The position numbers and the translations under genes are program-made. The notes under the pieces are model-generated. The model did not search any database. It was not told the origin of the DNA and was given only the letters and a program-made list of their open reading frames with translations. DNA of 64,000 nt from a virus (taxonomy: Duplodnaviria; Caudoviricetes). How positions within the stretch are numbered: position 1 is the first letter of the stretch; every line of letters starts with the position of its first letter. The stretch is taken from the IMG/VR virus record IMGVR_UViG_3300021400_000034, positions 128,001-192,000 of that record; one strand, 5' to 3'. This document shows positions 3,113-29,373 of this stretch, piece after piece.

Positions 3113-3235
3113 GTGTAGATGCAACTATGTAGAGGCAACCATGTTTAGAAAGTTTTACAAAAGTTTCTCATAAAAATATGTATATTGTTGTATAAATAAA
3201 ACAATCAAAGCTGGAATACAGCGCAAAGGAATAAA

Positions 3236-3364
3236 ATGATCCTGACCGGAACGACATATCAGTCAAAATACGCCAATCACAAGGCGGTTGAAAATTGCGG
3301 TCGCGATCAAGGCTTGAGAAGCATCGATCCAAGATTTGCAATCGAGCCGAACCGCTGCGAATGA
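3236..3364 (+). CDS. Putative 42-aa leader peptide of the tRNA operon
   Basis: AAGGA SD, ATG 3236, TGA 3362-3364 overlapping an antiterminator arm. Confidence 0.5.
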   Translation: MILTGTTYQSKYANHKAVENCGRDQGLRSIDPRFAIEPNRCE

Positions 3365-3431
3365 CTTCCAGTCTCTAAGACGCTTTTATAAGAGGAGAAC
3401 GAGGAAGTCACCACGACTTCCTCTCTTTTTT
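3362..3431 (+). promoter_or_regulatory. Attenuator-like terminator/antiterminator
   Basis: Terminator GAGGAAGTC-accac-GACTTCCTC + T6; alternative pairing TGACTTCC(3362-3369)/GGAAGTCA(3403-3410). Confidence 0.55.
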
Positions 3432-3496
3432 GTATAAGCGTCGAAACACCGTCTCGTGAAGATGATGTGCAGATTGACATTTCGGCAATGACTTAT

Positions 3497-3570
3497 GGAC
3501 CGGTAGCCCAACTGGCAGAGGCAGGGCACTCAAAACGCCCGCAGTGATGGTTCGAATCCATCTCGGTCCA
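3497..3570 (+). tRNA. tRNA-Leu(CAA), short variable arm
   Basis: Cloverleaf, loop CT-CAA-AA, GGTTCGAATCC. Confidence 0.8.
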
Positions 3571-3575
3571 CTTAT

Positions 3576-3649
3576 GGGGCTGCATGTACCAAGGCTGGCG
3601 ATGGATCTTAGCAAGATTCGTGAGAAGGGTTCGATTCCCTTCGGTTCCA
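3576..3649 (+). tRNA. tRNA-Ala(AGC)
   Basis: Loop TT-AGC-AA, G3:U70, atypical D arm. Confidence 0.7.
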
Positions 3650-3655
3650 CTACAT

Positions 3656-3729
3656 TAGGTCGTAGTTCTAATTGGCAGAACGCCTGGCCGTTAACCAGGA
3701 TGTTGCAGGTTCGAGTCCTGCCCTCCCAG
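3656..3729 (+). pseudogene. Degenerate tRNA-Asn(GTT)
   Basis: Good D/AC/T arms, C33, acceptor stem with 3 mismatches. Confidence 0.55.
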
Positions 3730-3736
3730 CTAATTT

Positions 3737-3810
3737 CAGCGTATAGCTCAGTCTGGTAGAGCGTTGGTTTCGGGTACCAAAGGTCGGTGGTTCGAATCCA
3801 CCTACGCTGA
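3737..3810 (+). tRNA. tRNA-Pro(CGG)
   Basis: Cloverleaf, TTGGT-TTCGGGT-ACCAA. Confidence 0.9.
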
Positions 3811-3846
3811 CTCTTTAGAAAAACTTTGAAAATGACAAAATTTGAC

Positions 3847-3875
3847 TTTACAAAACAGCTAAAAATTCCTATAAT
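3847..3875 (+). promoter_or_regulatory. Early (sigma70-type) promoter family TTTA(C/G)(A/G)-N17-TATA(T/A)T
   Basis: Same motif with -35 at 5241, 12934, 14855, 17371, 19860, 21784, 25355, 49043, 51698, 55057 (+) and 36732-36759 (16-nt spacer), 39642-39670, 41223-41251, 42093-42121, 43796-43824 (-). Confidence 0.75.
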
Positions 3876-3911
3876 ATATATGTAAAACTCTTAAAGAAAA
3901 GGACCTGAACT

Positions 3912-4253
3912 ATGAAATTCAGAATCGTCTACATCGGCAACACCCGCCACATCAAGGAACTCAAGGCTGCAGCCCAGGAATTCAACCCCACCGCCCGCTC
4001 TCAGTGGCTCGGGATCTGCTTCCCGGACGACGCGATCGAAGCTGAAGTCGAAAGCGTAGAAGAGGGCAAGAAGCTCATGGCCCACATCTACAAGAAGGTC
4101 AACTGCTTCCCGAAGAAGTACTCTTACGTGGACGGACCGGAATGGTGGTCCAACGACATGAAGCACTTCCTCGGCACTTCTGTCTGCTCCGACCGCTTCG
4201 ACTACGAGAAGCCAGTCACCGAAGAACACTTTGAAGACTTCTTGGAGGCATAA
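3912..4253 (+). CDS. Hypothetical early protein
   Basis: ORF after early promoter with AAGGACC RBS. Confidence 0.75.
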   Translation: MKFRIVYIGNTRHIKELKAAAQEFNPTARSQWLGICFPDDAIEAEVESVEEGKKLMAHIYKKVNCFPKKYSYVDGPEWWSNDMKHFLGTSVCSDRFDYEKPVTEEHFEDFLEA

Positions 4254-4537
4254 TGATCTGGAAGCGCTCTACATACAGTCACAGCGGAACGCTCGCTGTG
4301 TTCGCAAACGATGACGATGGCAGTCCTTACGGCGTCGCTACCGTATATCTGGAAGGGCAGAGCGAAACGCTCCCCAGAGACTGCGCATTCGTCGATACGA
4401 ACAACTGGCCAGACATCGTCGAGACGCTGGAGAAAGCCGATCTCGCTGAAGAGCTGATCGACTCCTATGGCTCTTCGGGATTCTGCGTCTATCCAGCGAT
4501 GCGCTTCAAGATCGAGAAGATCTCGGAAGCACGATAA
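4253..4537 (+). CDS. Hypothetical protein (DUF4313-like)
   Basis: PYG.ATV.L...AFVDTNN...SGFCVYP pattern. Confidence 0.55.
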   Translation: MIWKRSTYSHSGTLAVFANDDDGSPYGVATVYLEGQSETLPRDCAFVDTNNWPDIVETLEKADLAEELIDSYGSSGFCVYPAMRFKIEKISEAR

Positions 4538-4557
4538 ATTAAGTAGATTTGTTCTAC

Positions 4558-4631
4558 GCCCCGATAGCTCAGCTGGATAGAGCAACTGCCTTCTAAGCAG
4601 TAGGTCGCAGGTTCGAATCCTGCTCGGGGTA
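4558..4631 (+). tRNA. tRNA-Arg(TCT)
   Basis: Canonical cloverleaf. Confidence 0.92.
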
Positions 4632-4755
4632 CTACCGAGTCTAGCTCTCGACCTATATCCTCACACAAATATGGGTTTCCCTTAAACTAACATACTGCTA
4701 GACTCTGTCATGGTCTTCTCCGTTCCCATGAATAAAGAACCGAGACGCCTTTCAT

Positions 4756-4829
4756 GGATCTGTATGACAACTGGAATAGTCGAGGCGACTTTTAATCGTC
4801 GGATCTGGGTTCGAGTCCCGGCAGGTCCA
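4756..4829 (+). tRNA. tRNA-Lys(TTT)
   Basis: GGCGA-CTTTTAA-TCGTC, T arm. Confidence 0.85.
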
Positions 4830-4842
4830 CTAACATAGAACA

Positions 4843-5034
4843 ATGGAGATGAAGATGAAGAAAGACAAGAAAGAGCCTGAGACTTGGGAAGAGAAGAAGA
4901 ACCGCTGGGAGAAGCAGACGAAGAAGGCACTGTCTTTCGCTAAACAGAGCGGAATCGACGTCAAGAAGTTACAACGCGAACGAGCTAAGAACGAAGCTGA
5001 GAAGAGAGATCGATCTCGTTCGCAGTTCTTCTAA
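4843..5034 (+). CDS. Small basic hypothetical protein
   Basis: ORF between tRNAs with phage codon usage. Confidence 0.55.
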   Translation: MEMKMKKDKKEPETWEEKKNRWEKQTKKALSFAKQSGIDVKKLQRERAKNEAEKRDRSRSQFF

Positions 5035-5039
5035 GACAA

Positions 5040-5124
5040 GGCCACATGGCGGAACTGGTAGACGCTATGGACTTAAAATCCATTGAAGGTAATCTTCGTG
5101 AGAGTTCGAGTCTCTCTGCGGCTA
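5040..5124 (+). tRNA. tRNA-Leu(TAA)
   Basis: Type II cloverleaf. Confidence 0.88.
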
Positions 5125-5127
5125 TAC

Positions 5128-5219
5128 TGGGCAGTCGCCAAGTCTGGTTCAAGGCCCCGGACTTTGACTCCGGTAGAGAGGAAGTTCCTCCGTCAGTGGT
5201 TCGAATCCACTCTGCCCAA
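5128..5219 (+). tRNA. tRNA-Gln(TTG) with long variable arm
   Basis: CCGGA-CTTTGAC-TCCGG; extra GAGGA-agt-TCCTC hairpin. Confidence 0.8.
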
Positions 5220-5340
5220 TAAAAAATTCTAGAAATAGGGTTTAGAAACTGAACTTCAATTTCTATATTCTAATCATCGTCAATCGATGAGGCTCTTCCG
5301 AGAGAAGAACCAGCAAATTGAAATTTCGGCAATGACTTAT

Positions 5341-5414
5341 TCCACTCTAGCTCAATTGGTAGTAGCGGGCGGCTGTTAACCGCCAGGTTCCTGGTTCGAG
5401 TCCAGGGAGTGGAG
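5341..5414 (+). tRNA. tRNA-Asn(GTT)
   Basis: Canonical cloverleaf. Confidence 0.92.
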
Positions 5415-5415
5415 C

Positions 5416-5822
5416 TACACACGCGGTAATTGTTTTACAGTTTCTGCTTGGCGTGAGCATTCCTCCGTCCGGGGTGCCTTTTGAGCCCTCGGGTCGCGGT
5501 AAAAGAATGAAACTGGAGAGACTAAGTTGAAAAGGCTGCGATGTACCGCACAGGTGAAGTAAGTGCAACAACACTGGTTTCGAATTAAATGGCGAGGAGC
5601 CATCGAGAGAAGTCGAACTGTGGTAAGAGCAGAGGCTCTACGCTCTGGAGGTTGCATACTCCGGACGTGGACTACAAAGTGCATCCGATCGTCGCGGATA
5701 TTCTTCTTTCGATACGGGCAAATCGCAAGTCAGGAACAGTCATGCAAGACTCAGTACTGGCGAGCTCTTTAACGAGAGAGAACACTGCACTGAGGTCACC
5801 GCAGTCTAATCAAACCTCACCT
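5416..5822 (+). ncRNA. Large structured ncRNA candidate (possibly GOLLD/ROOL-like)
   Basis: ~400 nt between two tRNAs, no credible ORF, multiple helices (CAGTTTC/GAAACTG, TGAGGT/ACCTCA). Confidence 0.4.
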
Positions 5823-5823
5823 C

Positions 5824-5896
5824 GGGGCCGTGGCGCAATTGGTAGCGCATCAGATTTGCATTCTGAGGGTTGCGGGTCCGACTCCCGCCGGTTCCA
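5824..5896 (+). tRNA. tRNA-Ala(TGC)
   Basis: Cloverleaf, G3:U70, T loop TCCGACT. Confidence 0.85.
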
Positions 5897-5899
5897 CTA

Positions 5900-5960
5900 T
5901 AGATCCTAACAGCAATTCAAAGCACATTCCTGTTAAGAATCGAAAGCTAAAATGGATCTA
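5900..5960 (+). ncRNA. ACAGCAA-stem element E1 carrying an Asn(GTT) anticodon stem-loop
   Basis: TAGATCC/GGATCTA stem, TAACAGCAA, ATTC-CTGTTAA-GAAT. Confidence 0.7.
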
Positions 5961-5967
5961 GTCATTT

Positions 5968-6040
5968 CAGTCTGTACGTCAATTGGTAGACGGATGGTTT
6001 TGGGAACCATTAGTTGAGTGTTCGAGTCACTCCAGACTGA
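5968..6040 (+). tRNA. tRNA-Pro(TGG)
   Basis: Cloverleaf. Confidence 0.88.
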
Positions 6041-6161
6041 CTACTAAAAGAGGGACAAGAGGCTTCCACCTCCTGATCGAATTTCGTCGTTCGATCTCAC
6101 CTCTATACAATATGAGGATATGGAAGAATCCTCGTAAAAATAAAGATAACAGAGGCGAATT

Positions 6162-6944
6162 ATGATTTGCGAAAATTGCGGAAAAGAACATGACGGTTCT
6201 TACGGAAGTGGAAGATTCTGCTCTAGAGATTGCAGATTTTCTTATATAGGTAAACAGACTAACAAGAATGGTAAACATACTGGTCATCCTAATTATAATA
6301 CTGGAAGGACTCATTTTACTGCTTCACCAGATGGATGGAAATGCAAATGGTGTGATTTAGTCTTTAGAACTAGACGTGAACGTTCAAAACATTCAAATGA
6401 AGTTCATATACGCGATAAAAAGCATCCTTGGAATTATGGACTAACCAAAGATACTTCTAAAAAGGTAAAAGAGAGTACAGAATTAGTTAGGGAACTATAC
6501 AAAGCTGGAAAAATTCGTAAACCTGACAAAAAATTAGTATGGACGGAAGAGAGAAGACAAAGACAATCTGATAAGAAAAAGAAGTTTTATTCTGAACATC
6601 CAGAAGCACATCCAAATCGAAAATTAGCTAATAATCGTTCTAAGATGAGTTATCCAGAAAAGATAGTTTACGATTGGCTTACTGAGAAAAACATATCTTT
6701 TGAACATAATAAGCTGATAAGAACTAAAACTATTACGAGATATGTAGATTTTTATCTAAAAGACAATAATCTTATAATAGAAGTTGATGGAGAATTTTGG
6801 CACAATAGAAAGATTGAAAAAGATAAAAAGAAAGATTTTGAAGCCGAAGAAGCCGGTTATACTACTCTCCGAATAAAAGCAAAAGAGAGGATAATAGACC
6901 GATTAAATGACTTCTTCAGCTATCATATAAAAACGCTGGAATAG
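6162..6944 (+). CDS. Homing endonuclease (Zn fingers + DUF559/Vsr-like PD-(D/E)xK domain)
   Basis: CENC, CSRDC, CKWC; SYPE...VDFY...IIEVDGEFWH; AT-rich; stop lies inside the next tRNA. Confidence 0.75.
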   Translation: MICENCGKEHDGSYGSGRFCSRDCRFSYIGKQTNKNGKHTGHPNYNTGRTHFTASPDGWKCKWCDLVFRTRRERSKHSNEVHIRDKKHPWNYGLTKDTSKKVKESTELVRELYKAGKIRKPDKKLVWTEERRQRQSDKKKKFYSEHPEAHPNRKLANNRSKMSYPEKIVYDWLTEKNISFEHNKLIRTKTITRYVDFYLKDNNLIIEVDGEFWHNRKIEKDKKKDFEAEEAGYTTLRIKAKERIIDRLNDFFSYHIKTLE

Positions 6945-7007
6945 CTCAGCTGGTAGAGCAGGGCTTTCGTAAAGCTCAGGTCGGCAGTTCGAGCCTGTCT
7001 TCCAGCG
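6935..7007 (+). tRNA. tRNA-Thr(CGT)
   Basis: Cloverleaf. Confidence 0.88.
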
Positions 7008-7019
7008 CTACTGAAATTA

Positions 7020-7142
7020 GAGATGGTAACAGCAATTCTCTTTAGGCTGGTAACCTCGTGGTCGCGGGTTCGAGTCCCGTCTGGTCAGTCTCCGGATTGA
7101 TCGGTAGCTCAGTTGGTAGAGCACGTACAAGAAATCCATCTC
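7020..7142 (+). ncRNA. Element E2: circularly permuted tRNA(GGT)
   Basis: GAGATGG/CCATCTC stem, AACAGCAA; 3' piece 7044-7088 precedes 5' piece 7098-7125. Confidence 0.8.
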
Positions 7143-7148
7143 GTCTTT

Positions 7149-7222
7149 GGTGCCGTGGTGAAGTGGCCTAACACATCGGTCTGTCTAACCGACATACGCG
7201 AGTTCGAATCTCGCCGGCATCG
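7149..7222 (+). tRNA. tRNA-Asp(GTC)
   Basis: Cloverleaf. Confidence 0.88.
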
Positions 7223-7225
7223 CTA

Positions 7226-7555
7226 TGATCTGAAGGAGAGACTCTAGCAATAGTGGAGTCGCTATCCTTGCAAAGGCCGCTACATTGAGCGTTACTTCGC
7301 CGTCAATTGGATCCAATGGAAGGACGCTTACTGGTTGATCAGCAGAAGTCAATTCGACGTCAACATGATGTCACCGACGAAGGCTGTGATGGAGTCAGGG
7401 GAGAGCATAGGCATAAGCATCCTGGCCCGGCCGCTGGAATCTCGAATTCATTTCAACCATCGAACGAGTCCGATGGTTCTATCGCGAAAAATAACGGCAT
7501 AAGCGCGAGACAGGTAAAGTCTTCGGTCACAAGACTATAAATGACCGGCCGTACA
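7226..7555 (+). ncRNA. Unknown ~300-nt structured RNA
   Basis: 5' TGATCTGAAGG pairs with TCTTCGGTCA (7520-7529); internal hairpins; between tRNAs. Confidence 0.4.
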
Positions 7556-7556
7556 A

Positions 7557-7640
7557 GTCAGCTTCGGATAGCGGCAATTCCAGGAGACTGTAAATCTCCT
7601 GCCTTAACGGGCTTCGTAGGTTCGAGTCCTACAGCTGGCA
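7557..7640 (+). tRNA. tRNA-Tyr(GTA)
   Basis: Type II cloverleaf. Confidence 0.9.
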
Positions 7641-7647
7641 CTAATCC

Positions 7648-7823
7648 ATAGCGTCTGAATTCAAGTACGTATCTTCGTAGCTCAGTTGGTAGAGCGCAGG
7701 CCGAGAGGGCCTGAGGCGGTGGTTCGAGTCCATTCGTCGACCGTGAAGAGGGGGAGGCTTGGAGAGGATATCGGTTGAACTGTGAACTCGAGATAGCTTT
7801 TCACTCTTATCCTCAGCGCTATT
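7648..7823 (+). ncRNA. tRNA-like domain nested in a larger closed RNA
   Basis: Outer ATAGCG/CGCTAT stem; canonical D and T arms; AC loop lacks U33; poor acceptor stem. Confidence 0.55.
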
Positions 7824-7825
7824 AT

Positions 7826-7898
7826 GCTGGAATAGCTCAATTGGCAGAGCGTCGCCTTTGTAACGCGAGGGTTGGGAGTTCGATTCTCTCTTCCAGCG
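7826..7898 (+). tRNA. tRNA-Thr(TGT)
   Basis: Cloverleaf. Confidence 0.85.
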
Positions 7899-7959
7899 CT
7901 ATAATGAAAAGAATTGTAAAAGTTTTCTAAATCTTGGCTTTATCGATATAAATAGACAG

Positions 7960-8589
7960 ATGGTTCACTACACTGTCTATAAGATAACAAATCTTCTAAA
8001 CGGGATGATCTACATCGGTAAGCACAAGACGGAGAATCTGGACGATTCTTACATGGGATCTTCTGAGTGGTTGAAGTCTTCTATCAAGAAGCACGGAATA
8101 GAGAACTACAAGAAAGAGATTCTATTCGACTTCGAGACAAAAGAAGAGATGGACTTGAAGGAGAAAGAGCTAGTCAACGAAGAGTTCGTCAGACGCAAAG
8201 ATACATACAATCTGAACACTGGCGGAACTGGAGGCTGGTTCGCATGTAACAGCTCTGGTCTGAATCATTCGGCTGGTCAACATCTTCTCTCAGGCGAGAG
8301 ATGTCGGAAGGATCCAGAATACCGGAAGAAGTTCTGCGAGAAAGTGAGCGAGGGACTAAAGAAATATTACGAAGATCCAGAACATCGTCTCTATGGCGTC
8401 AAGAACCCTAGATACGGAATTCAGCTCACTCCGGAAGAGAAAGCGAGACTCAGCGCATCTCATTCTGGAAAGAAGAACGGTTCTTACGGTTCGCACTGGA
8501 TAACGAACCCGAAGCTGAAGAAGAACATGAGACTGAAAGGACTTGTGAAACTTCCAAGAGGTTGGAAGTTCGGAAGAAAGAAGTATTAA
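7960..8589 (+). CDS. GIY-YIG homing endonuclease (Seg-like)
   Basis: VYKITN..NGMIYIGKH...YMGS...YNL; late promoter at 7947. Confidence 0.9.
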   Translation: MVHYTVYKITNLLNGMIYIGKHKTENLDDSYMGSSEWLKSSIKKHGIENYKKEILFDFETKEEMDLKEKELVNEEFVRRKDTYNLNTGGTGGWFACNSSGLNHSAGQHLLSGERCRKDPEYRKKFCEKVSEGLKKYYEDPEHRLYGVKNPRYGIQLTPEEKARLSASHSGKKNGSYGSHWITNPKLKKNMRLKGLVKLPRGWKFGRKKY

Positions 8590-8592
8590 CGA

Positions 8593-8664
8593 CGCGGAGT
8601 GGAGGAGTGGTTTCCTTGAAGGGTTCATACCCCTTAGACCCCGGTTCGAGTCCGGGCTCCGCTA
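8593..8664 (+). tRNA. Initiator tRNA-fMet(CAT)
   Basis: C1 mismatch, three G-C pairs in the anticodon stem. Confidence 0.8.
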
Positions 8665-8669
8665 CTAAT

Positions 8670-8935
8670 TTTAGTCAAGTCAATGTCGGGCCGTTTGACT
8701 CGCGCTTCGATGTAACGACATACTTGGCAAGGCGTCAGTGAAGTGATGGCCATCGCGGATCTTTCGCCGGATCTTTTAAAGCGTAGCGCATGTACCGATA
8801 GAGATCTCCTGAGGTTGCGAACTCTCTTGATCTTGACAAGCAGGTAGCTTCGGTCCCGTCGTTGAGACGGTGCAAAAAGTCTCAGTCGTCGCAACGGCTG
8901 TGATCGCGGTTCGAATCCGTCGTGCGTGACACAAT
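8670..8935 (+). ncRNA. Unknown ~260-nt structured RNA ending in a T-arm-like hairpin
   Basis: Hairpins, TGAGAC/GTCTCA alternative pairing, GCGGTTCGAATCCGT near the 3' end. Confidence 0.35.
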
Positions 8936-8938
8936 TTA

Positions 8939-9037
8939 GAGATACCGACAGCAATTCATTGTTAGTGGTTCGAATCCATAAGCTGAATAGCTGCGGTCTG
9001 GCGCAAGTCAGATGGGCAATACAAACAGCGGTATCTC
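8939..9037 (+). ncRNA. Element E3: T-arm-first degenerate permuted tRNA-like payload
   Basis: GAGATACCG/CGGTATCTC stem, ACAGCAA, GTGGTTCGAATCCAT followed by two hairpins. Confidence 0.7.
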
Positions 9038-9042
9038 GTCAT

Positions 9043-9114
9043 GGTCCCTTCGGCCAGTGGTTAAGCCATCGCACTTTCTATGCGAGGACCCCAGTTCGAC
9101 TCTGGGAGGGACTA
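9043..9114 (+). tRNA. tRNA-Glu(TTC)
   Basis: Cloverleaf. Confidence 0.88.
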
Positions 9115-9229
9115 CTAAGAGTGACTCGGTGGGTGTTCGCGGCTGATAGTCCTAACACACCTCCGGCAACACTTCGAACTAGATGACTAGCTACTGCGAC
9201 GAGTTCGAAGGAGAACACTCTTCGTTTTT

Positions 9230-9299
9230 GAGATAGGTACAGCAATGATCACCAACTCTGCTCCATCATGCGGTTCGTGGCGTTAGGCCACTCTATCTC
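9230..9299 (+). ncRNA. Element E4 (payload unclear)
   Basis: GAGATAG/CTATCTC stem, GTACAGCAA. Confidence 0.65.
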
Positions 9300-9366
9300 G
9301 TAAACTTGGGTGCGCGGTCGGAGGAAGCCCTCCGGAGTTTCTCAATTCTCGAAAAATTGATCATAT

Positions 9367-9439
9367 CCCGGTATAGTTCAGTTGGTAGAACAGCTCCTTC
9401 ATACGGAGACGGTCGCAGGTTCAAGTCCTGCTATCGGAA
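9367..9439 (+). tRNA. tRNA-Met/Ile2(CAT)
   Basis: Cloverleaf, loop TTCATAC. Confidence 0.78.
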
Positions 9440-9445
9440 CTATAT

Positions 9446-9518
9446 GCCTCGCTGGCGCAATTGGTAGCGCAAGGCACTCTTAATGCTTGGGTTGAAGGTT
9501 CGAGTCCTTCGCGGGGTA
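9446..9518 (+). tRNA. tRNA-Lys(CTT)
   Basis: Cloverleaf. Confidence 0.9.
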
Positions 9519-9646
9519 CTAAAATCTATCTCATGCTTATTAAGCTACGGCATGAGCTCTAGCTATGTTTCGTCCGAGAGCCATCAGGTATAAAAAGCGG
9601 TCAGGGCACGGTTCTTGCTCTAAAGCGGTCGCTAGCATGAACTTTT

Positions 9647-9719
9647 CTCCGGTTAACTCAGCGGTTAGAGTGCCATCCTTACAAGTTGGAAGTCCGGGGT
9701 TCGAATCCCTGATCGGAGA
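9647..9719 (+). tRNA. tRNA-Val(TAC)
   Basis: Cloverleaf. Confidence 0.88.
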
Positions 9720-9725
9720 CTACTA

Positions 9726-9793
9726 AAGATCCTAACTGCAAATTTCTTATAACATCCGATTGGTAATCAGACTACGTTAGAAAAATGGATCTT
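9726..9793 (+). ncRNA. Element E5 carrying a Thr(GGT) anticodon stem-loop
   Basis: AAGATCC/GGATCTT stem, TAACTGCAA, TCCGA-TTGGTAA-TCAGA. Confidence 0.68.
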
Positions 9794-9804
9794 GAAATTT
9801 TTAT

Positions 9805-9878
9805 CGGCATCTAGCGCAATTGGTTAGAGCACTGCTCTGATAAGGCAGAGGTTTTTGGTTCAAGTCCAAGGTTGCCGA
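9805..9878 (+). tRNA. tRNA-Ile(GAT)
   Basis: Cloverleaf. Confidence 0.85.
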
Positions 9879-9882
9879 CTAA

Positions 9883-9938
9883 GAGGTTCTTACAGCAATT
9901 CTACAATCTTCTTTTTGGTTAAGAAAAAAAGGAATCTC
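9883..9938 (+). ncRNA. Element E6 carrying a Pro(TGG)-like anticodon stem-loop
   Basis: GAGGTTCT/GGAATCTC stem, TACAGCAA, TTCTT-TTTGGTT-AAGAA. Confidence 0.62.
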
Positions 9939-9944
9939 GATTAT

Positions 9945-10018
9945 CCACCTATAGCTCAGAACGGTAGAGCGGAAGACTGAAGATCTTCGCGTCGGAGTCT
10001 CGAACCCTCCTAGGTGGA
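9945..10018 (+). tRNA. tRNA-Phe(GAA)
   Basis: Cloverleaf with atypical T loop. Confidence 0.8.
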
Positions 10019-10027
10019 CTACAATAT

Positions 10028-10109
10028 CCCCTCGTGGCGGAACTGGTAGACGCGCCTGACTTAGGATCAGGAGCCGAGAGGCGTGCAGGTTCGAGTCCTG
10101 CCGAGGGGA
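10028..10109 (+). tRNA. tRNA-Leu(TAG)
   Basis: Type II cloverleaf. Confidence 0.92.
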
Positions 10110-10113
10110 CTAT

Positions 10114-10223
10114 AAGATAACAGACAGCAATCATCTACCCCAAAGCGGCTATGTTGGTGAAAGTCCAGCCGTCGATGTATGTCGGCGTCATCTAATCTAG
10201 GATTCCGCTCAAAATGTCATCTT
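10114..10223 (+). ncRNA. Element E7: permuted tRNA opened in the anticodon loop (Gly CCC-like)
   Basis: AAGATAACA/TGTCATCTT stem, GACAGCAA; AGCGG-T arm-acceptor hairpin-D arm-CCGCT. Confidence 0.7.
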
Positions 10224-10229
10224 GACTAT

Positions 10230-10303
10230 ACTCCGTTGGTGTAATGGACTTAGCATACGGGCCTACGAAGCCCTTGATCCAAGTTCGAATCTTGGACGGA
10301 GTA
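10230..10303 (+). tRNA. tRNA-Arg(ACG)
   Basis: Cloverleaf. Confidence 0.88.
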
Positions 10304-10315
10304 CTATTCCATGAT

Positions 10316-10436
10316 TAGATCCAAACTGCAACTCTCAAATCGTTACCATCAATCAACGGCCAAGCATCTCGGGATGCGCCTAGCTACATGGACTGGGAGA
10401 GGAGGGTTCGAATCCCCGGAAAATGAATCGGATCTA
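10316..10436 (+). ncRNA. Element E8 with a T-arm-containing payload
   Basis: TAGATCC/GGATCTA stem, AACTGCAA, GGGTTCGAATCCC. Confidence 0.65.
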
Positions 10437-10623
10437 GCTAAGCTCTCGATGCTGCTGACATTACGTCTAAATCGGAAAAACGCTATTCCATGTCTCGTGA
10501 AAGATATAAGCGAGAAGCAAGATAGTTAGCTCTGCATCGTCGATGCTAAGAGAGACGATGTCGTCATATATCCTCTGAACGGTCTTCGAGACAAGCGCTA
10601 AATCAACGCACAGGATAAATTAA

Positions 10624-10696
10624 GCTGACGTGCCGAAGTGGGAACGGAGGAGTCTGCAAAACTTTCTATGAGTGGGTTCGATTCCTACCGTCAGCT
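10624..10696 (+). tRNA. tRNA-Cys(GCA)
   Basis: Cloverleaf, U73. Confidence 0.88.
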
Positions 10697-10701
10697 CTAT
10701 A

Positions 10702-10811
10702 CAAGATGTCAACCGCAATTCCTTTCCAGGGTAGCTCTAGAGGTAGAGCACCGTCCTTGAGGCGGAAGAAGCTGGTTCGATCCCAGCCCCGGGAGCACAG
10801 ACGGCATCTTG
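10702..10811 (+). ncRNA. Element E9: whole tRNA-like payload with a 5-nt anticodon loop
   Basis: CAAGATGTC/GGCATCTTG stem, AACCGCAA, CCGTC-CTTGA-GGCGG. Confidence 0.7.
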
Positions 10812-10822
10812 ACAATTTAAAT

Positions 10823-10906
10823 CGGGCTATTACCTTGGGCCGGACTCATAACCCGGGCCGTTAAAATCCAGGGCGGTGCGGAGAGGTTCGACTCCTCGTG
10901 GCCCGA
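10823..10906 (+). tRNA. D-armless tRNA(CAT)-like RNA with long variable arm
   Basis: CGGGCTA/TGGCCCG acceptor, CTCATAA loop, T arm, no D stem. Confidence 0.55.
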
Positions 10907-10909
10907 TAA

Positions 10910-10994
10910 GGAGGACTACACTAATTGGTAAGTGACCACGGTGCTAACGTGGCGCCTCGAAAGAGGCTTCCAGGTTCGAGCCCTGGGTCCTCCG
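10910..10994 (+). tRNA. tRNA-Ser(GCT)
   Basis: Type II cloverleaf. Confidence 0.88.
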
Positions 10995-11076
10995 CTAAAG
11001 ATCTTAGGAGTCGTTGCCCTAAGCAACGTGGAGCGCACGCGCCGGTACCGTCCAGAGCCGTCAAATCTGGACTTTT

Positions 11077-11167
11077 GGAAGTGTGCCAGAGTCTGGCTTA
11101 TCGGACCGGTCTTGAAAACCGAGGGCGGTACCCATTCCGCACGGGGGTTCGAATCCCTCCACTTCCT
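11077..11167 (+). tRNA. tRNA-Ser(TGA)
   Basis: Type II cloverleaf. Confidence 0.88.
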
Positions 11168-11172
11168 CTATC

Positions 11173-11243
11173 GCGTCCTTGATGTAGTGGTAGCACTTCT
11201 CATTGCCTGTGAGAAAGCGCCAGTTCGAATCTGGCAGGACGCT
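11173..11243 (+). tRNA. tRNA-Gly(GCC)
   Basis: Cloverleaf. Confidence 0.85.
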
Positions 11244-11266
11244 TACTTTTCTATATTTAAAATACA

Positions 11267-11348
11267 GAGATAGACACAGCAATCCTTTTGGATAACGTAA
11301 TGATCTGCAAAATCAAAGCTAGACGGTCCAAATCCGTCAATCTATCTC
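11267..11348 (+). ncRNA. Element E10: Cys(GCA) anticodon arm + T-like arm
   Basis: GAGATAGA/TCTATCTC stem, CACAGCAA, TGAT-CTGCAAA-ATCA, GACGG-TCCAAAT-CCGTC. Confidence 0.7.
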
Positions 11349-11356
11349 GTTCATAA

Positions 11357-11427
11357 GCACCACTGGTCTAAAAGTATGATCAAACTCTTCCAAAGTTTGG
11401 GAACCGGGGCAGTACCGGTGTGGTGCT
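11357..11427 (+). tRNA. tRNA-Gly(TCC)
   Basis: Cloverleaf with atypical T loop GGCAGTA. Confidence 0.75.
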
Positions 11428-11430
11428 CTA

Positions 11431-11545
11431 GAGATTCCAACAGCAAACTCTGGTTTTTTCCGCCGTTGGGAAAATAGCTCAATTGGTAGAGCGCTCGTCA
11501 CTATGACGAGAGGTTACGGGTTCGAGTCCCGCTAAAGTGAATCTC
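11431..11545 (+). ncRNA. Element E11: tRNA permuted between T arm and acceptor
   Basis: GAGATTC/GAATCTC stem, AACAGCAA; acceptor hairpin, then D, AC and T arms. Confidence 0.72.
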
Positions 11546-11552
11546 GTCTTTT

Positions 11553-11626
11553 GGCTCTGTCGAATAACTGGTTCAGTTCGTTAGCCTCTCAAGCTAGAAA
11601 TTCGGGTTCAAGTCCCGACAGAGCTA
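11553..11626 (+). tRNA. tRNA-Glu(CTC)
   Basis: Cloverleaf. Confidence 0.88.
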
Positions 11627-11632
11627 TACATC

Positions 11633-11706
11633 CCCGCAGTAGTGTGAATTGGTTAGCACGCCTGCTTGTGGCGCAGGAAGTTCGGGTTCGAATCTCGGCT
11701 ATGGGA
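11633..11706 (+). tRNA. tRNA-His(GTG)
   Basis: Cloverleaf; no encoded G-1, A73. Confidence 0.8.
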
Positions 11707-11844
11707 CTAAGTCACTGATGAAGATGATGTAAGTAAGCCCGTCCAAGGTAGATCCTTTTGGGGCTAGTGCAGTAGCATAAGTTGCGGTATAGAGGCTGAG
11801 AATGCGTACAGGATAGCTCAGTAATGCGTCATCAGAGACTTTCA

Positions 11845-12225
11845 ATGATAGGCACAGCAACTCTAACACGTTCAATACATCAAATGCTGACGTGCAGAGC
11901 TACGGGAAATTGCCTTGATCGACGAGGACAGGGCCATGGTCGAGCAGCGCAGCTGAATCTCGATCACCTTGACGGACGGTCAGAACGTTCGTCTAACTTC
12001 CGGGCAGACTGCTCGGTAAGATCTTGCCCGTCTCTGATAGTTCCAAGACGAAGAACTTGGTGCTTGCTCTAATAAGTAAGGAGATAGTGCTGGTGACACC
12101 AGATAGCGTCAATGAGAAACCGTTGACTGATCTTTTGTAAGCTGCTATTCGAATCAAGAGAGAAGCGACACGAAGCAGCGGAGACTGAAAAGACAGCAAA
12201 CTCTAATCGGTCTCGTCCCTATCAT
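11845..12225 (+). ncRNA. Element E12: ~380-nt element with hairpin-dense payload
   Basis: ATGATAGG/CCTATCAT stem, CACAGCAACTCTAA. Confidence 0.55.
12181..12214 (+). ncRNA. Element E13: minimal empty element nested in E12
   Basis: GAGACTGA/TCGGTCTC stem, GACAGCAAACTCTAA. Confidence 0.55.
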
Positions 12226-12231
12226 GTTTTC

Positions 12232-12302
12232 TGCCCGTTGGTATAACGGTATTACACCTGACTCTGACTCAGGTGACGGTGGTCCGACTCCATCACGGGC
12301 AA
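12232..12302 (+). tRNA. tRNA-Gln(CTG)
   Basis: Cloverleaf. Confidence 0.85.
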
Positions 12303-12420
12303 TATGGAATGATAAGGTTCAGCCTCTGTTCTAGAGATCGGTGAATTCGCGACACTTCATCGAGATCGAGAACTACCACCAGCACGATCTGTCTTCGAAG
12401 CGGATCAAAAGAGGCATTCT

Positions 12421-12492
12421 AGGGAATTCGTATATCGGTTATTACGGCGGTCTCCAAAACCGTTCAGCTCTGTTCGACTCGGAGATTCCCTG
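12421..12492 (+). tRNA. tRNA-Trp(CCA)
   Basis: Cloverleaf. Confidence 0.85.
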
Positions 12493-12495
12493 CTA

Positions 12496-12624
12496 GAGAT
12501 TCTAACAGCAGAACGGTCTGTAAAACCGTTGGCTTTCGCCTTCGCAGGTTCGAATCCTGTCCACCTCCATACGAGGAGGTGTGCCCGAGCTGGTCAAAGG
12601 GGACGGTCCGCTAAAATGAATCTC
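12496..12624 (+). ncRNA. Element E14: circularly permuted tRNA-Tyr(GTA)
   Basis: GAGATTC/GAATCTC stem, AACAGCA; AC-V-T arms, CACCTCCA, linker, GGAGGTG, D arm; ACGGTC duplicated. Confidence 0.8.
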
Positions 12625-12629
12625 GTTCT

Positions 12630-12714
12630 CCTCCGGTACCCGAATTGGTATAGGGGCCTGCTTGAGGGGCAGGTGGGCGATATGCCCGTGAGAGTTCAAG
12701 TCTCTCTTGGAGGA
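12630..12714 (+). tRNA. tRNA-Leu(GAG)
   Basis: Type II cloverleaf. Confidence 0.88.
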
Positions 12715-12831
12715 CTAAAGTTTGTTCTTGCAAGGCGGACTCCGTCAATTAAGTCAATCATGTCGAGATGGACATGGGACGACGGAGGACGTGACCCCCT
12801 GCTCGGTGTCAGGCTAAAACGCCGCTATTTG

Positions 12832-12845
12832 AAGTCATTGCCGAA
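12832..12845 (+). repeat. Trailer complementary to leaders at 3481-3494 and 5325-5338
   Basis: AAGTCATTGCCGAA is the exact reverse complement of TTCGGCAATGACTT. Confidence 0.8.
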
Positions 12846-12879
12846 CACTTCCTCGCTTTTGTGGGCTTTAGGCGAGGAC

Positions 12880-12914
12880 AGCGAGTTCAGGACCGCTCTG
12901 AACCCGCTCTTTTT
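12880..12914 (+). terminator. Terminator ending the RNA operon
   Basis: AGCG.GTTCAG/CTGAAC.CGCT + T-run. Confidence 0.65.
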
Positions 12915-17910: not shown

Positions 17911-18576
17911 ATGGAACACACGATCACTAAGTTCATAAGAACTATAGAAGTCAGATCTGCTCGCATGTTTAGACTCATGAAGGAGTTCACGGAGTGGTAC
18001 CGGAAAGAGTATCATATTCACGTAGATCTGAGCAATAGAACTATGACGCCGAGGAATTACTTCGTCTACGGCCTCAACATCATCATCTACGACGACATAT
18101 CGATCTACGAGTATGACTCTGAGGGACGAGGTCATCTGATTCTGAGACTAGTCAACTCGAACATGAGTAAGATATGCGAAATACTCGGAGCTATTATGAG
18201 AGCTTACACTTTCAACAATTCTTCAGAAATCACAAAGAAAGTATACGAACTCTCTGGGTTCTTAGGTCTATGGGCGCCAGACTCTAGCAGAGTTCTAGAT
18301 CCTGCTCTTTTCGAAGATCTCTTATGCAAGGCTAGCGAGAGGATGTCTGGTCCGACAAAGTTCTTCGACGGCGCTAGCTGCTACAGTATCTCTGGTATGA
18401 TCGGAACCGAGAACTACATGGACACACTGAAACAGAGGAGATTTGGTCTCATCAACGACAACGAGTACAAGATAGCGGAAGCTTTCTTCAAGTACATAGA
18501 GGACAAGAAGTATGAGGAAGAAGAAAGACAAGAAAGTACACTCGATAGGGTTCCAGTTCGTGAACTCGACTACTAA
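17911..18576 (+). CDS. Hypothetical protein, paralog family A
   Basis: Paralog of 15995. Confidence 0.75.
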   Translation: MEHTITKFIRTIEVRSARMFRLMKEFTEWYRKEYHIHVDLSNRTMTPRNYFVYGLNIIIYDDISIYEYDSEGRGHLILRLVNSNMSKICEILGAIMRAYTFNNSSEITKKVYELSGFLGLWAPDSSRVLDPALFEDLLCKASERMSGPTKFFDGASCYSISGMIGTENYMDTLKQRRFGLINDNEYKIAEAFFKYIEDKKYEEEERQESTLDRVPVRELDY

Positions 18577-28449: not shown

Positions 28450-29373
28450 ATGAACAAGAACTGTTCCAAGTGGGTAGAGAAATACCGTCCTGACCATGTC
28501 AAAGACGTCATCCTTCCCAAGACCGAGAGAAGATTCTTCGACGAGATCGTGAAGACGAAAGAAGTTCCGAACTTGATGCTGTACAGCGCAAAGGGAAGAG
28601 GAAAGACTTCTGTCGCCCTCGCGCTCATCAACGATCTCGACGCTCAGGTGTTCAAGATAAACGCTTCGATGGAAGGAAAGATCGAGCTGCTCCGTGAAGA
28701 CCTGTCCAAGTTCGCTAGAACGAAGAACCCGAAGAAGACGCCGAAGATCGTCTTCCTAGACGAGTTCGACATGTGCTCCGCTAAGTTCCAAGGCGCTCTG
28801 AGAAACTTGATCGAAGAGACTGCTCAGGGCTGCAGCTACATCATGACCTGCAACTTCCCGATGAACGTGATCGACGCTCTCAAGGAAGGAAGAACGATGG
28901 AACTCGACTTCAACTTCAACGATCCGAAAAAGCAGCAAGAGATGAAGGACCAGATCCTCGTTCGAGCCATCGGAATTCTGAAGCACGAAGGAGTCGAATA
29001 CGACGAAGCCGTCGTGAAGGAGCTCGTGGAGCGCTACGGCACTTCTATCCGTGAGCTGTACTCGATGCTCCAGAAGTACTACAAGCTCTACGGAAAGATC
29101 GACGCTAACATTCTCAAGTTCTCTCAAGTGGACGAGAAGCTCATCGACCTGCTCAAGGAGAAGAAGGTCTCTGAGGCGAGAACGCTGATCAACCAGAAGG
29201 GCTGGTCCGACGTGGACGTCTACCGGTTCTTGTTTGACAAGTACGTCCCGACCTGCCAGAAGAAGGGAAGCGCGATTCTGACCATCGCTCAGTACGAGGG
29301 AATCGGCGCTACCTCTAGACTTCCAGACATTCAGCTCGCTGCGTGTCTCATCTCTCTCATAGGACTTGAATAA
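28450..29373 (+). CDS. Clamp loader large subunit (gp44/RFC)
   Basis: WVEKYRP, GRGKTS, INAS, LDEFD. Confidence 0.92.
   Translation: MNKNCSKWVEKYRPDHVKDVILPKTERRFFDEIVKTKEVPNLMLYSAKGRGKTSVALALINDLDAQVFKINASMEGKIELLREDLSKFARTKNPKKTPKIVFLDEFDMCSAKFQGALRNLIEETAQGCSYIMTCNFPMNVIDALKEGRTMELDFNFNDPKKQQEMKDQILVRAIGILKHEGVEYDEAVVKELVERYGTSIRELYSMLQKYYKLYGKIDANILKFSQVDEKLIDLLKEKKVSEARTLINQKGWSDVDVYRFLFDKYVPTCQKKGSAILTIAQYEGIGATSRLPDIQLAACLISLIGLE

Follow-up and report, generated by a model that had tools for sequence, protein, structure and literature searches.

The DNA analyzed here, which we call the window, is a stretch of 64,000 nucleotides (nt) from a virus of the Caudoviricetes, bases 128001-192000 of the 243,336-base-pair (bp) virus record IMGVR_UViG_3300021400_000034, which has direct terminal repeats. 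It carries an array of 33 transfer RNA (tRNA) genes on the + strand, spanning positions 3497 to 12715, with homing-endonuclease genes interspersed. We found that a 14-nt sequence (the core) stands before two of these tRNA genes, that its exact reverse complement (the anti-core) stands behind the last one, and that related phages with different cores have correspondingly different anti-cores. Comparison of these sequences leads us to lean toward the reading that core and anti-core are the two strands of a selected RNA duplex, in which a leader module would open the array transcripts and a trailer would supply the 3' strand, a layout similar to that of ribosomal RNA (rRNA) operons, or rrn operons.

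A 24-nt leader element, ATTGA(C/A)ATTTCGGCAATGACTTAT, is present twice in the window, at 3473-3496 and 5317-5340, compared to an expectation of 0.00 from shuffled sequence. The tRNA at 3497 starts one base past the first of these elements, and tRNA-Asn at 5341 is placed likewise with respect to the second. The core, TTCGGCAATGACTT, occurs without mismatch at exactly three places in the window, two on the + strand (3481-3494 and 5325-5338) and one on the - strand (12832-12845), and shuffling yielded no matches like the core or the leader element. The minus-strand copy falls between the last tRNA (12630-12715) and a terminator formed by a hairpin (12885-12903) and a T-run. We estimate that the chance of a 14-nt reverse-complement match to the 24-nt leader is approximately 0.003 in 64 kilobases (kb) and approximately 1e-5 in a 200-nt trailer. 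These findings bear out the initial annotation of the window, which had described two leader copies before tRNAs behind two promoter regions and an exact 14-nt reverse complement between the last tRNA and the terminator. When leader and trailer were co-folded, the minimum-energy structure contained the 14-bp helix, and the net gain was approximately -16 to -20 kcal/mol.

Relatives of this array were found by anchoring on a flanking protein of 208 amino acids (aa) and on a downstream 159-aa protein that resembles a radical-SAM activase, and they comprise two viral records (G001, 248 kb, and G002) together with metagenome, ENA, and Logan contigs. Complementary sequences flank the tRNAs on the same strand in 11 related records, as they do in the window. 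The leader before the homologous tRNA-Leu(CAA) in G001 has a different core, TTCGGCTTTATCT, and the G001 trailer, AGATAAAGCCGAA, located 5 nt past the last tRNA, is the exact complement of that core. This 13-mer also precedes tRNA-Asn, and G001 and G002 each contain two sense copies and one antisense copy, which is the layout the window phage has for its own core. Both leader copies and the trailer are altered together within each genome. We also carried out an unbiased scan of 13 arrays, in which all upstream complements of at least 9 nt were listed for the 28 nt around the trailer site. The longest complement of this trailer segment lay in a leader module in all 12 of the arrays that have a leader; L148 begins mid-array without one, and the trailers of L011, L016, and L013 lie outside this comparison. 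Searches of viral contigs gave little beyond the known relatives. An exact 18-mer scan gave one match, in a coding region of an unrelated AT-rich phage, which we attribute to chance. A degenerate leader pattern gave at least 118 matches, and the 80 loci that were read were chance matches in coding DNA except for two known relatives. These two relatives were also the only real matches in a scan with the trailer pattern, and use of a downstream 199-aa protein as an anchor recovered no relatives from viral contigs.

The cores fall into five variants, and every one of them has a trailer of its own to which it is complementary over 11-15 bp. Variant A (core TTCGGCAATGACTT) forms a helix of 12-15 bp, variant B (TTCGGCTTTATCT) one of 13-14 bp, variants C (ATTTCGGCAATACT) and E (AAATTTCGGCTTTA) helices of 14 bp, and variant D (TTCGGCTTTTC) one of 11 bp, with 9 bp at its second leader. 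Leaders and trailers from the same variant matched over 11-16 bp, and the predicted duplex energies were approximately -20 to -27 kcal/mol for variants A, B, C, and E and -16.8 kcal/mol for variant D. When leaders and trailers of variants A and B were crossed, only the invariant TTCGGC was common to both, leaving 6-7 bp and approximately -10 to -15 kcal/mol. Pair types were tabulated in register-anchored tables, and these show that helix positions 6, 7, 9, 10, and 11 have been altered on both strands: positions 6 and 7 are A-U or U-A, position 9 is G-C, A-U, or U-A, position 10 is A-U, U-A, C-G, or U-G, and position 11 is C-G or U-A. The initial annotation had proposed compensatory changes in related phages as a check on its reading and a loss of the complementarity as evidence against it. 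Such changes were found on both strands across the five variants, and the complementarity is conserved, since the differing cores of the relatives are matched by changes in both leader and trailer.

Judged by this covariation, the match is neither chance nor relic. The view that it arose by accident, or is the decaying remnant of an old hairpin whose loop took up the array, has nothing to recommend it but the shortness of the match; shuffles give no match, and the compensatory changes in 11 relatives already refute it, so that we give it practically no credence. The boundaries of the helix are informative as well. Variant C lacks one base of variant A on both strands and has two additional pairs at the other end of its helix, and the L018 helix is shorter by two pairs at its distal end and longer by an A-U and a G-U pair at its proximal end. 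Terminal G-U pairs also occur in L149 and L147. Since the length of the helix is held while its boundaries shift, with G-U pairs, the comparison points to selection on what would be an RNA duplex and not on a fixed DNA site.

This bears directly on the idea that the three sites act as DNA, whether as operators, as recombination or inversion sites, or as terminal inverted repeats of a mobile tRNA cassette. Of the copies that bracket the block with its homing-endonuclease genes, two are indeed direct and one is inverted, and one relative has an endonuclease gene inserted right in the leader core. However, the matched stretch changes register among the variants and terminates in G-T oppositions that form pairs in RNA alone; the complementarity alone is conserved and no fixed site is; the specificity of a DNA-binding protein would have had to change each time to account for five variants; and the adjoining leader hairpin covaries as RNA. 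A mobile element would be recognized by terminal inverted repeats in fixed register together with its own recombinase or transposase, and the block lacks this combination: no recombinase or transposase was found within it, the scanned open reading frames (ORFs) of the array being homing endonucleases. We therefore regard a DNA-level function as highly improbable.

We found that the core is one part of a larger leader module. Alignment of 11 leader modules revealed a constant order, in which a hairpin is followed by a box with the consensus GCAnAUUGAMA and the core begins 1-2 nt further on. Across these modules, compensatory changes occur at 7 of the 7 predicted hairpin pairs, and the hairpin loop, C-G-(A/U)-G-A, is nearly invariant. 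The ATTGA of the box and the A after M are invariant, and GCA precedes them. Because seven hairpin pairs covary and the loop is conserved, the leader region probably works as RNA. The whole 243-kb genome contains only two such modules. The TTGACA within the leader box was considered as a -35 hexamer and rejected, because no -10 element follows at 16-18 nt, where the tRNA starts. An Rfam search of leader and trailer returned no match.

A third module, with the same hairpin and an AUUGAAA box, stands before tRNA-Ala(AGC) in variant-B phages (L007:14164-14187, L006:7375-7397, and L146:2207-2232); it was seen in those variant-B records whose DNA at that place was compared. No partner for the core of this module, AACCGGAAACTTCT, was found in G001 or G002, where the best match is one of 10 nt in a promoter spacer, which we take as chance. 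In two further records, L013 (11225-12260) and L017 (1220-1900), the leader core is interrupted after TTCGGCAAT by an endonuclease-like ORF that carries a late box of its own, and this insertion separates the core from the first tRNA.

The distances between these elements and the tRNAs differ among the relatives. The core mostly lies 2-4 nt from the next tRNA, with 109-129 nt in L018, L142, L149, and L147, and the anti-core lies 3-13 nt past the last tRNA in nine genomes and 116 nt past it in the window. Since both distances vary, our data argue against a role for which the geometry at RNase P or 3'-processing sites would have to be fixed. The constant features are the order of hairpin, box, and core in the leader and the distance from the anti-core to the T-run of the terminator, which is 45-66 nt in ten genomes, and we assign the core/anti-core pair to the boundaries of the transcription unit. 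The predicted mean unpaired probability of the anti-core is 0.7-0.98 in 6 of 10 trailers and 0.31-0.48 in the other 4. In two variant-A relatives, L018 (approximately 18165-18235) and L148 (approximately 5110-5180), the last tRNA, Leu(GAG), is missing and Trp is the last tRNA detected. The anti-core of these relatives is far past that tRNA, yet anti-core and terminator have been kept, with a 12-bp Watson-Crick match. This match is extended by a G-U and an A-U pair in L018; L148 has no leader for comparison. The coordinates of the features in the window are collected in Table 1.

Table 1. Leader, trailer, and transcription features of the tRNA array, in positions of the window
Feature	Position	Strand	Remarks
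Promoter region feeding leader 1	3150-3198	+	sigma-70-like TTTACA...TATATT element and T4-type late box TATAAATA at 3191-3198
42-codon ORF upstream of leader 1	3236-3364	+	present in the same place in relatives
Terminator or attenuator hairpin and T-run just upstream of leader 1	3401-3423	+	conserved in relatives
Leader 1 hairpin, loop CGUGA	3447-3467	+	covarying pairs
Leader 1 conserved single-stranded box GCAGAUUGACA	3469-3479	+	family consensus GCAnAUUGAMA
Leader 1 core, 5' duplex strand	3481-3494	+	separated by 2 nt from the tRNA at 3497
Phage-type promoter GTTTAGA-N17-TATATT driving leader 2	5240-5269	+	approximately 48 nt upstream of leader 2
Leader 2 hairpin, loop CGAGA	5291-5311	+	covarying pairs
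Leader 2 conserved box GCAAAUUGAAA	5313-5323	+	
Leader 2 core	5325-5338	+	separated by 2 nt from tRNA-Asn at 5341
Last tRNA of the array, Leu(GAG)	12630-12715	+	
Structured spacer, 116 nt, from last tRNA to anti-core	12716-12831	+	lineage-specific; strongly folding insertion
Trailer anti-core AAGUCAUUGCCGAA, 3' duplex strand	12832-12845	+	exact complement of both cores
Trailer hairpin 1	12850-12878	+	in variants A and B with unrelated sequences; absent from C, D, and E
Intrinsic terminator hairpin and T-run ending the array	12880-12914	+	

Two promoter families occur in the window far more often than expected. The T4-type late box, TATAAATA, is present at 8 sites, all on the + strand, compared to 0.43 expected, and the phage-specific family GTTTASA-N17-TATATT, to which the promoter of leader 2 belongs, has 14 members compared to 0.02 expected. 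The order of promoter region, 42-codon ORF, and hairpin with T-run ahead of leader 1 is kept in the relatives. In a consensus scan, the stretch from the leaders to the trailer showed no strong intrinsic terminator, and this lack would allow a transcript to span from leader to trailer.

The arrangement invites comparison with rRNA operons. The rrn leader contains the boxB hairpin, boxA, and boxC, which is the 5' strand of the leader-trailer helix (Warner et al. 2023, PMC10250234). The leader-trailer helices are 25-40 bp for 16S and 27 bp for 23S, they covary freely, structure counting more than sequence, and in the published model boxC is kept at the RNA exit channel and pairs once the trailer emerges (PMC10250234). 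Similar to rRNA operons, the phage array has complementary, covarying sequences that flank stable-RNA genes on the same strand, a hairpin and a conserved single-stranded box close to the promoter with the 5' strand directly behind them, a repeat of the leader elements within the operon, and sequence that drifts while pairing is kept. Unlike in rRNA operons, the phage helix has 11-15 bp where those of rRNA have 25-40 bp, GCAnAUUGAMA takes the place of boxA, the block is 9-12 kb with approximately 25-37 tRNAs and endonuclease genes whose members are excised individually, and the distances to the mature RNAs are not fixed. No boxA-like element was found in either leader, and a single match with 2 mismatches, at 5763-5775, is not conserved in relatives. 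The likeness to rRNA operons put forward in the initial annotation thus holds for the layout of hairpin, box, and 5' strand and fails for helix length, boxA, and the distances to the tRNAs. The RNase III processing proposed with it finds no support, because a helix of 11-15 bp would be a poor RNase III substrate compared to the 25-40 bp of rRNA.

These likenesses and differences bear on a strict cis helix of the rRNA type, in which a leader tethered to the polymerase pairs with the emerging trailer and closes a 7.5- or 9.3-kb loop, leading to an RNase III cut, antitermination, or end protection. Such a helix would fit the rrn-like order of hairpin, conserved box, and 5' strand, the second leader copy within the array (compare the box in the rrn spacer), the fixed short distance between anti-core and terminator, and the lack of a strong intrinsic terminator between the sites in the consensus scan, and holding the leader at the exit channel, as modeled for boxC (PMC10250234), would overcome the problem of distance. 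We nevertheless consider it unlikely. The helix falls short of the 25-40 bp (16S) and 27 bp (23S) of rRNA, no boxA is conserved, and the gap between core and next tRNA can reach 109-129 nt, that between last tRNA and anti-core 116 nt. In addition, RNase P should cut the leader off the first tRNA well before the trailer is made, so that a loop of 7.5 or 9.3 kb needs a leader that survives this cleavage for minutes, and the two cores would compete for a single anti-core. A duplex of small-RNA size, formed in trans or late, appears more likely than an early cis loop, because cleavage by RNase P is expected to part the leader from the first tRNA minutes ahead of trailer synthesis, because two cores share one anti-core, and because 11-15 bp is typical of small-RNA pairing.

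The trailer itself looks in size and build like a small RNA derived from the 3' external transcribed spacer (3'ETS) of a tRNA operon, since it would consist of the anti-core, a hairpin in some variants, and a terminator with a U-tail. A small RNA of comparable origin is the 3'ETS-leuZ sponge, which Lalaouna et al. in 2015 reportedly described from the glyW-cysT-leuZ tRNA operon of E. coli, with RyhB and RybB as its partners. This sponge is also discussed in a preprint (bioRxiv 10.1101/2021.04.25.441314). Similar to 3'ETS-leuZ, the phage trailer is bounded by the last tRNA and the operon's intrinsic terminator, a terminator hairpin and U-tail come after its single-stranded pairing stretch, and its pairing length is within the small-RNA range. 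Unlike 3'ETS-leuZ, its partner is the 5' leader of its own operon and not unrelated small RNAs such as RyhB and RybB, and the phage pair covaries as a closed system.

A trans-acting trailer might also be aimed at a phage messenger RNA (mRNA). We found a fourth exact copy of the 14-mer outside the window, at genome position 28846-28859 (L001:1501-1514), in sense orientation and 21 nt after an ATG. It covers codons 8-12 (peptide FGNDF) of a 244-aa gene with a weak match to phrog_4542 (tail tube), and the anti-core plus one base is complementary to it over 15 nt. The first approximately 40 coding bases of this gene are almost invariant among relatives whose proteins are 78% identical. The homologue in the variant-B phage G001 (48% identity) reads TTTCACAATGACTTT at the site and has no complementarity to the G001 anti-core, which means that targeting of the tail-tube-like mRNA is lineage-specific at best. 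TTCGGAAACGACTT, present in G001 and G002, was considered as a homologue of the coding copy and rejected, since alignment places it in an unrelated gene. A small RNA directed at this late gene, with the leader cores as decoys or sponges, would be in keeping with the sense orientation of the fourth copy, for which we estimate a chance of approximately 0.002 in 243 kb, with the near-invariance of the early coding bases, and with the small-RNA-like build of the trailer. We hold it to be very unlikely, as the match is absent from G001 and hence is not conserved across the variants, whereas the leader is the only conserved partner of the trailer.

We thus return to a leader-trailer RNA duplex and hypothesize the following sequence of events. 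After transcription has reached the end of the array, the trailer would anneal to the leader module, either on leaders that the polymerase still keeps close or, with greater likelihood, in trans on leaders that are nascent or have been released by RNase P. Annealing would couple both ends of the transcription unit, and this coupling would give feedback on leader-dependent expression, or clear or stabilize its products. The pairing would not make an RNase III maturation site for the tRNAs. The sequences show that core and anti-core are complementary and covary and that the leader has an RNA structure. We infer from the DNA that both ends are transcribed into RNAs that meet, and we infer likewise the mode of their meeting, in cis or in trans, and its consequence. 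In a more elaborate form, which we find quite improbable, the leader module would be a phage-specific loading signal of the antitermination or RNA-chaperone type that rides with the polymerase through the untranslated, highly structured array, and pairing with the anti-core would switch this signal off at a set distance ahead of the terminator and so let transcription end, as an "end of operon" signal; alternatively or in addition, a trailer small RNA would tie tRNA supply to a late structural gene through the 15-nt match to the tail-tube-like mRNA.

Several observations weigh against a selected leader-trailer duplex. The anti-core of the window is predicted to be only 36% unpaired, owing to the 116-nt insertion. 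The pairing of variant D is just 11 and 9 bp, and the approximately five variants fall into two main clades, so that the covariation reflects few independent events. Because the third module of the variant-B phages is without a partner, the leader module may have a job of its own that it can do without pairing, with pairing limited to a subset of the modules. A predicted terminator hairpin precedes leader 1 and may limit the transcription that gets through to it. Finally, the functional consequence of the pairing is a guess.

Other RNAs are encoded with phage tRNA genes. The tRNA cluster of phage T4 ends with stable small RNAs, species 1 and 2 (rnaC and rnaD). The phage elements described here would likewise be non-tRNA RNAs encoded with the tRNA genes of a T4-like phage, and we found no sequence or Rfam relation between species 1 and 2 and the phage elements. 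We know of no report that species 1 or 2 pairs with a leader. No description of a leader-trailer pair of this kind for a phage tRNA array was found in our literature searches, and a layout familiar from rRNA operons is thus apparently undescribed for phage tRNA clusters. Other features of the array may be of interest as well. A non-tRNA element of approximately 55 nt, GTTGAAAAGGCTGCGATGTACCGCACAGGTGAAGTAAGTGCAACAACACTG, occurs at 5519-5580 of the window, at L007:10890-10945, and at approximately 3830-3885 of L015. It is alike almost letter for letter in these distant relatives and differently placed in their arrays, and is possibly a small RNA. Matches to YrlA (Y RNA-like) in Rfam, at 7057-7125 and 3677-3797, were below threshold, with 38 and 30 bits compared to a gathering score of 69.

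Untranslated tRNA arrays of several kb are common in large phages, and little is known about how their full-length transcription, processing, and regulation are achieved. The array described here begins with an RNA module of its own and closes with a module that matches it, and the two have stayed complementary through five variants. This suggests an organizing principle that is borrowed from, or convergent with, rRNA operons and the small RNAs derived from the spacers of tRNA operons. Should array expression be under the control of this pairing, the pairing would provide an easy means to influence phage tRNA supply and a new case in which the two ends of a bacterial-type transcription unit communicate.

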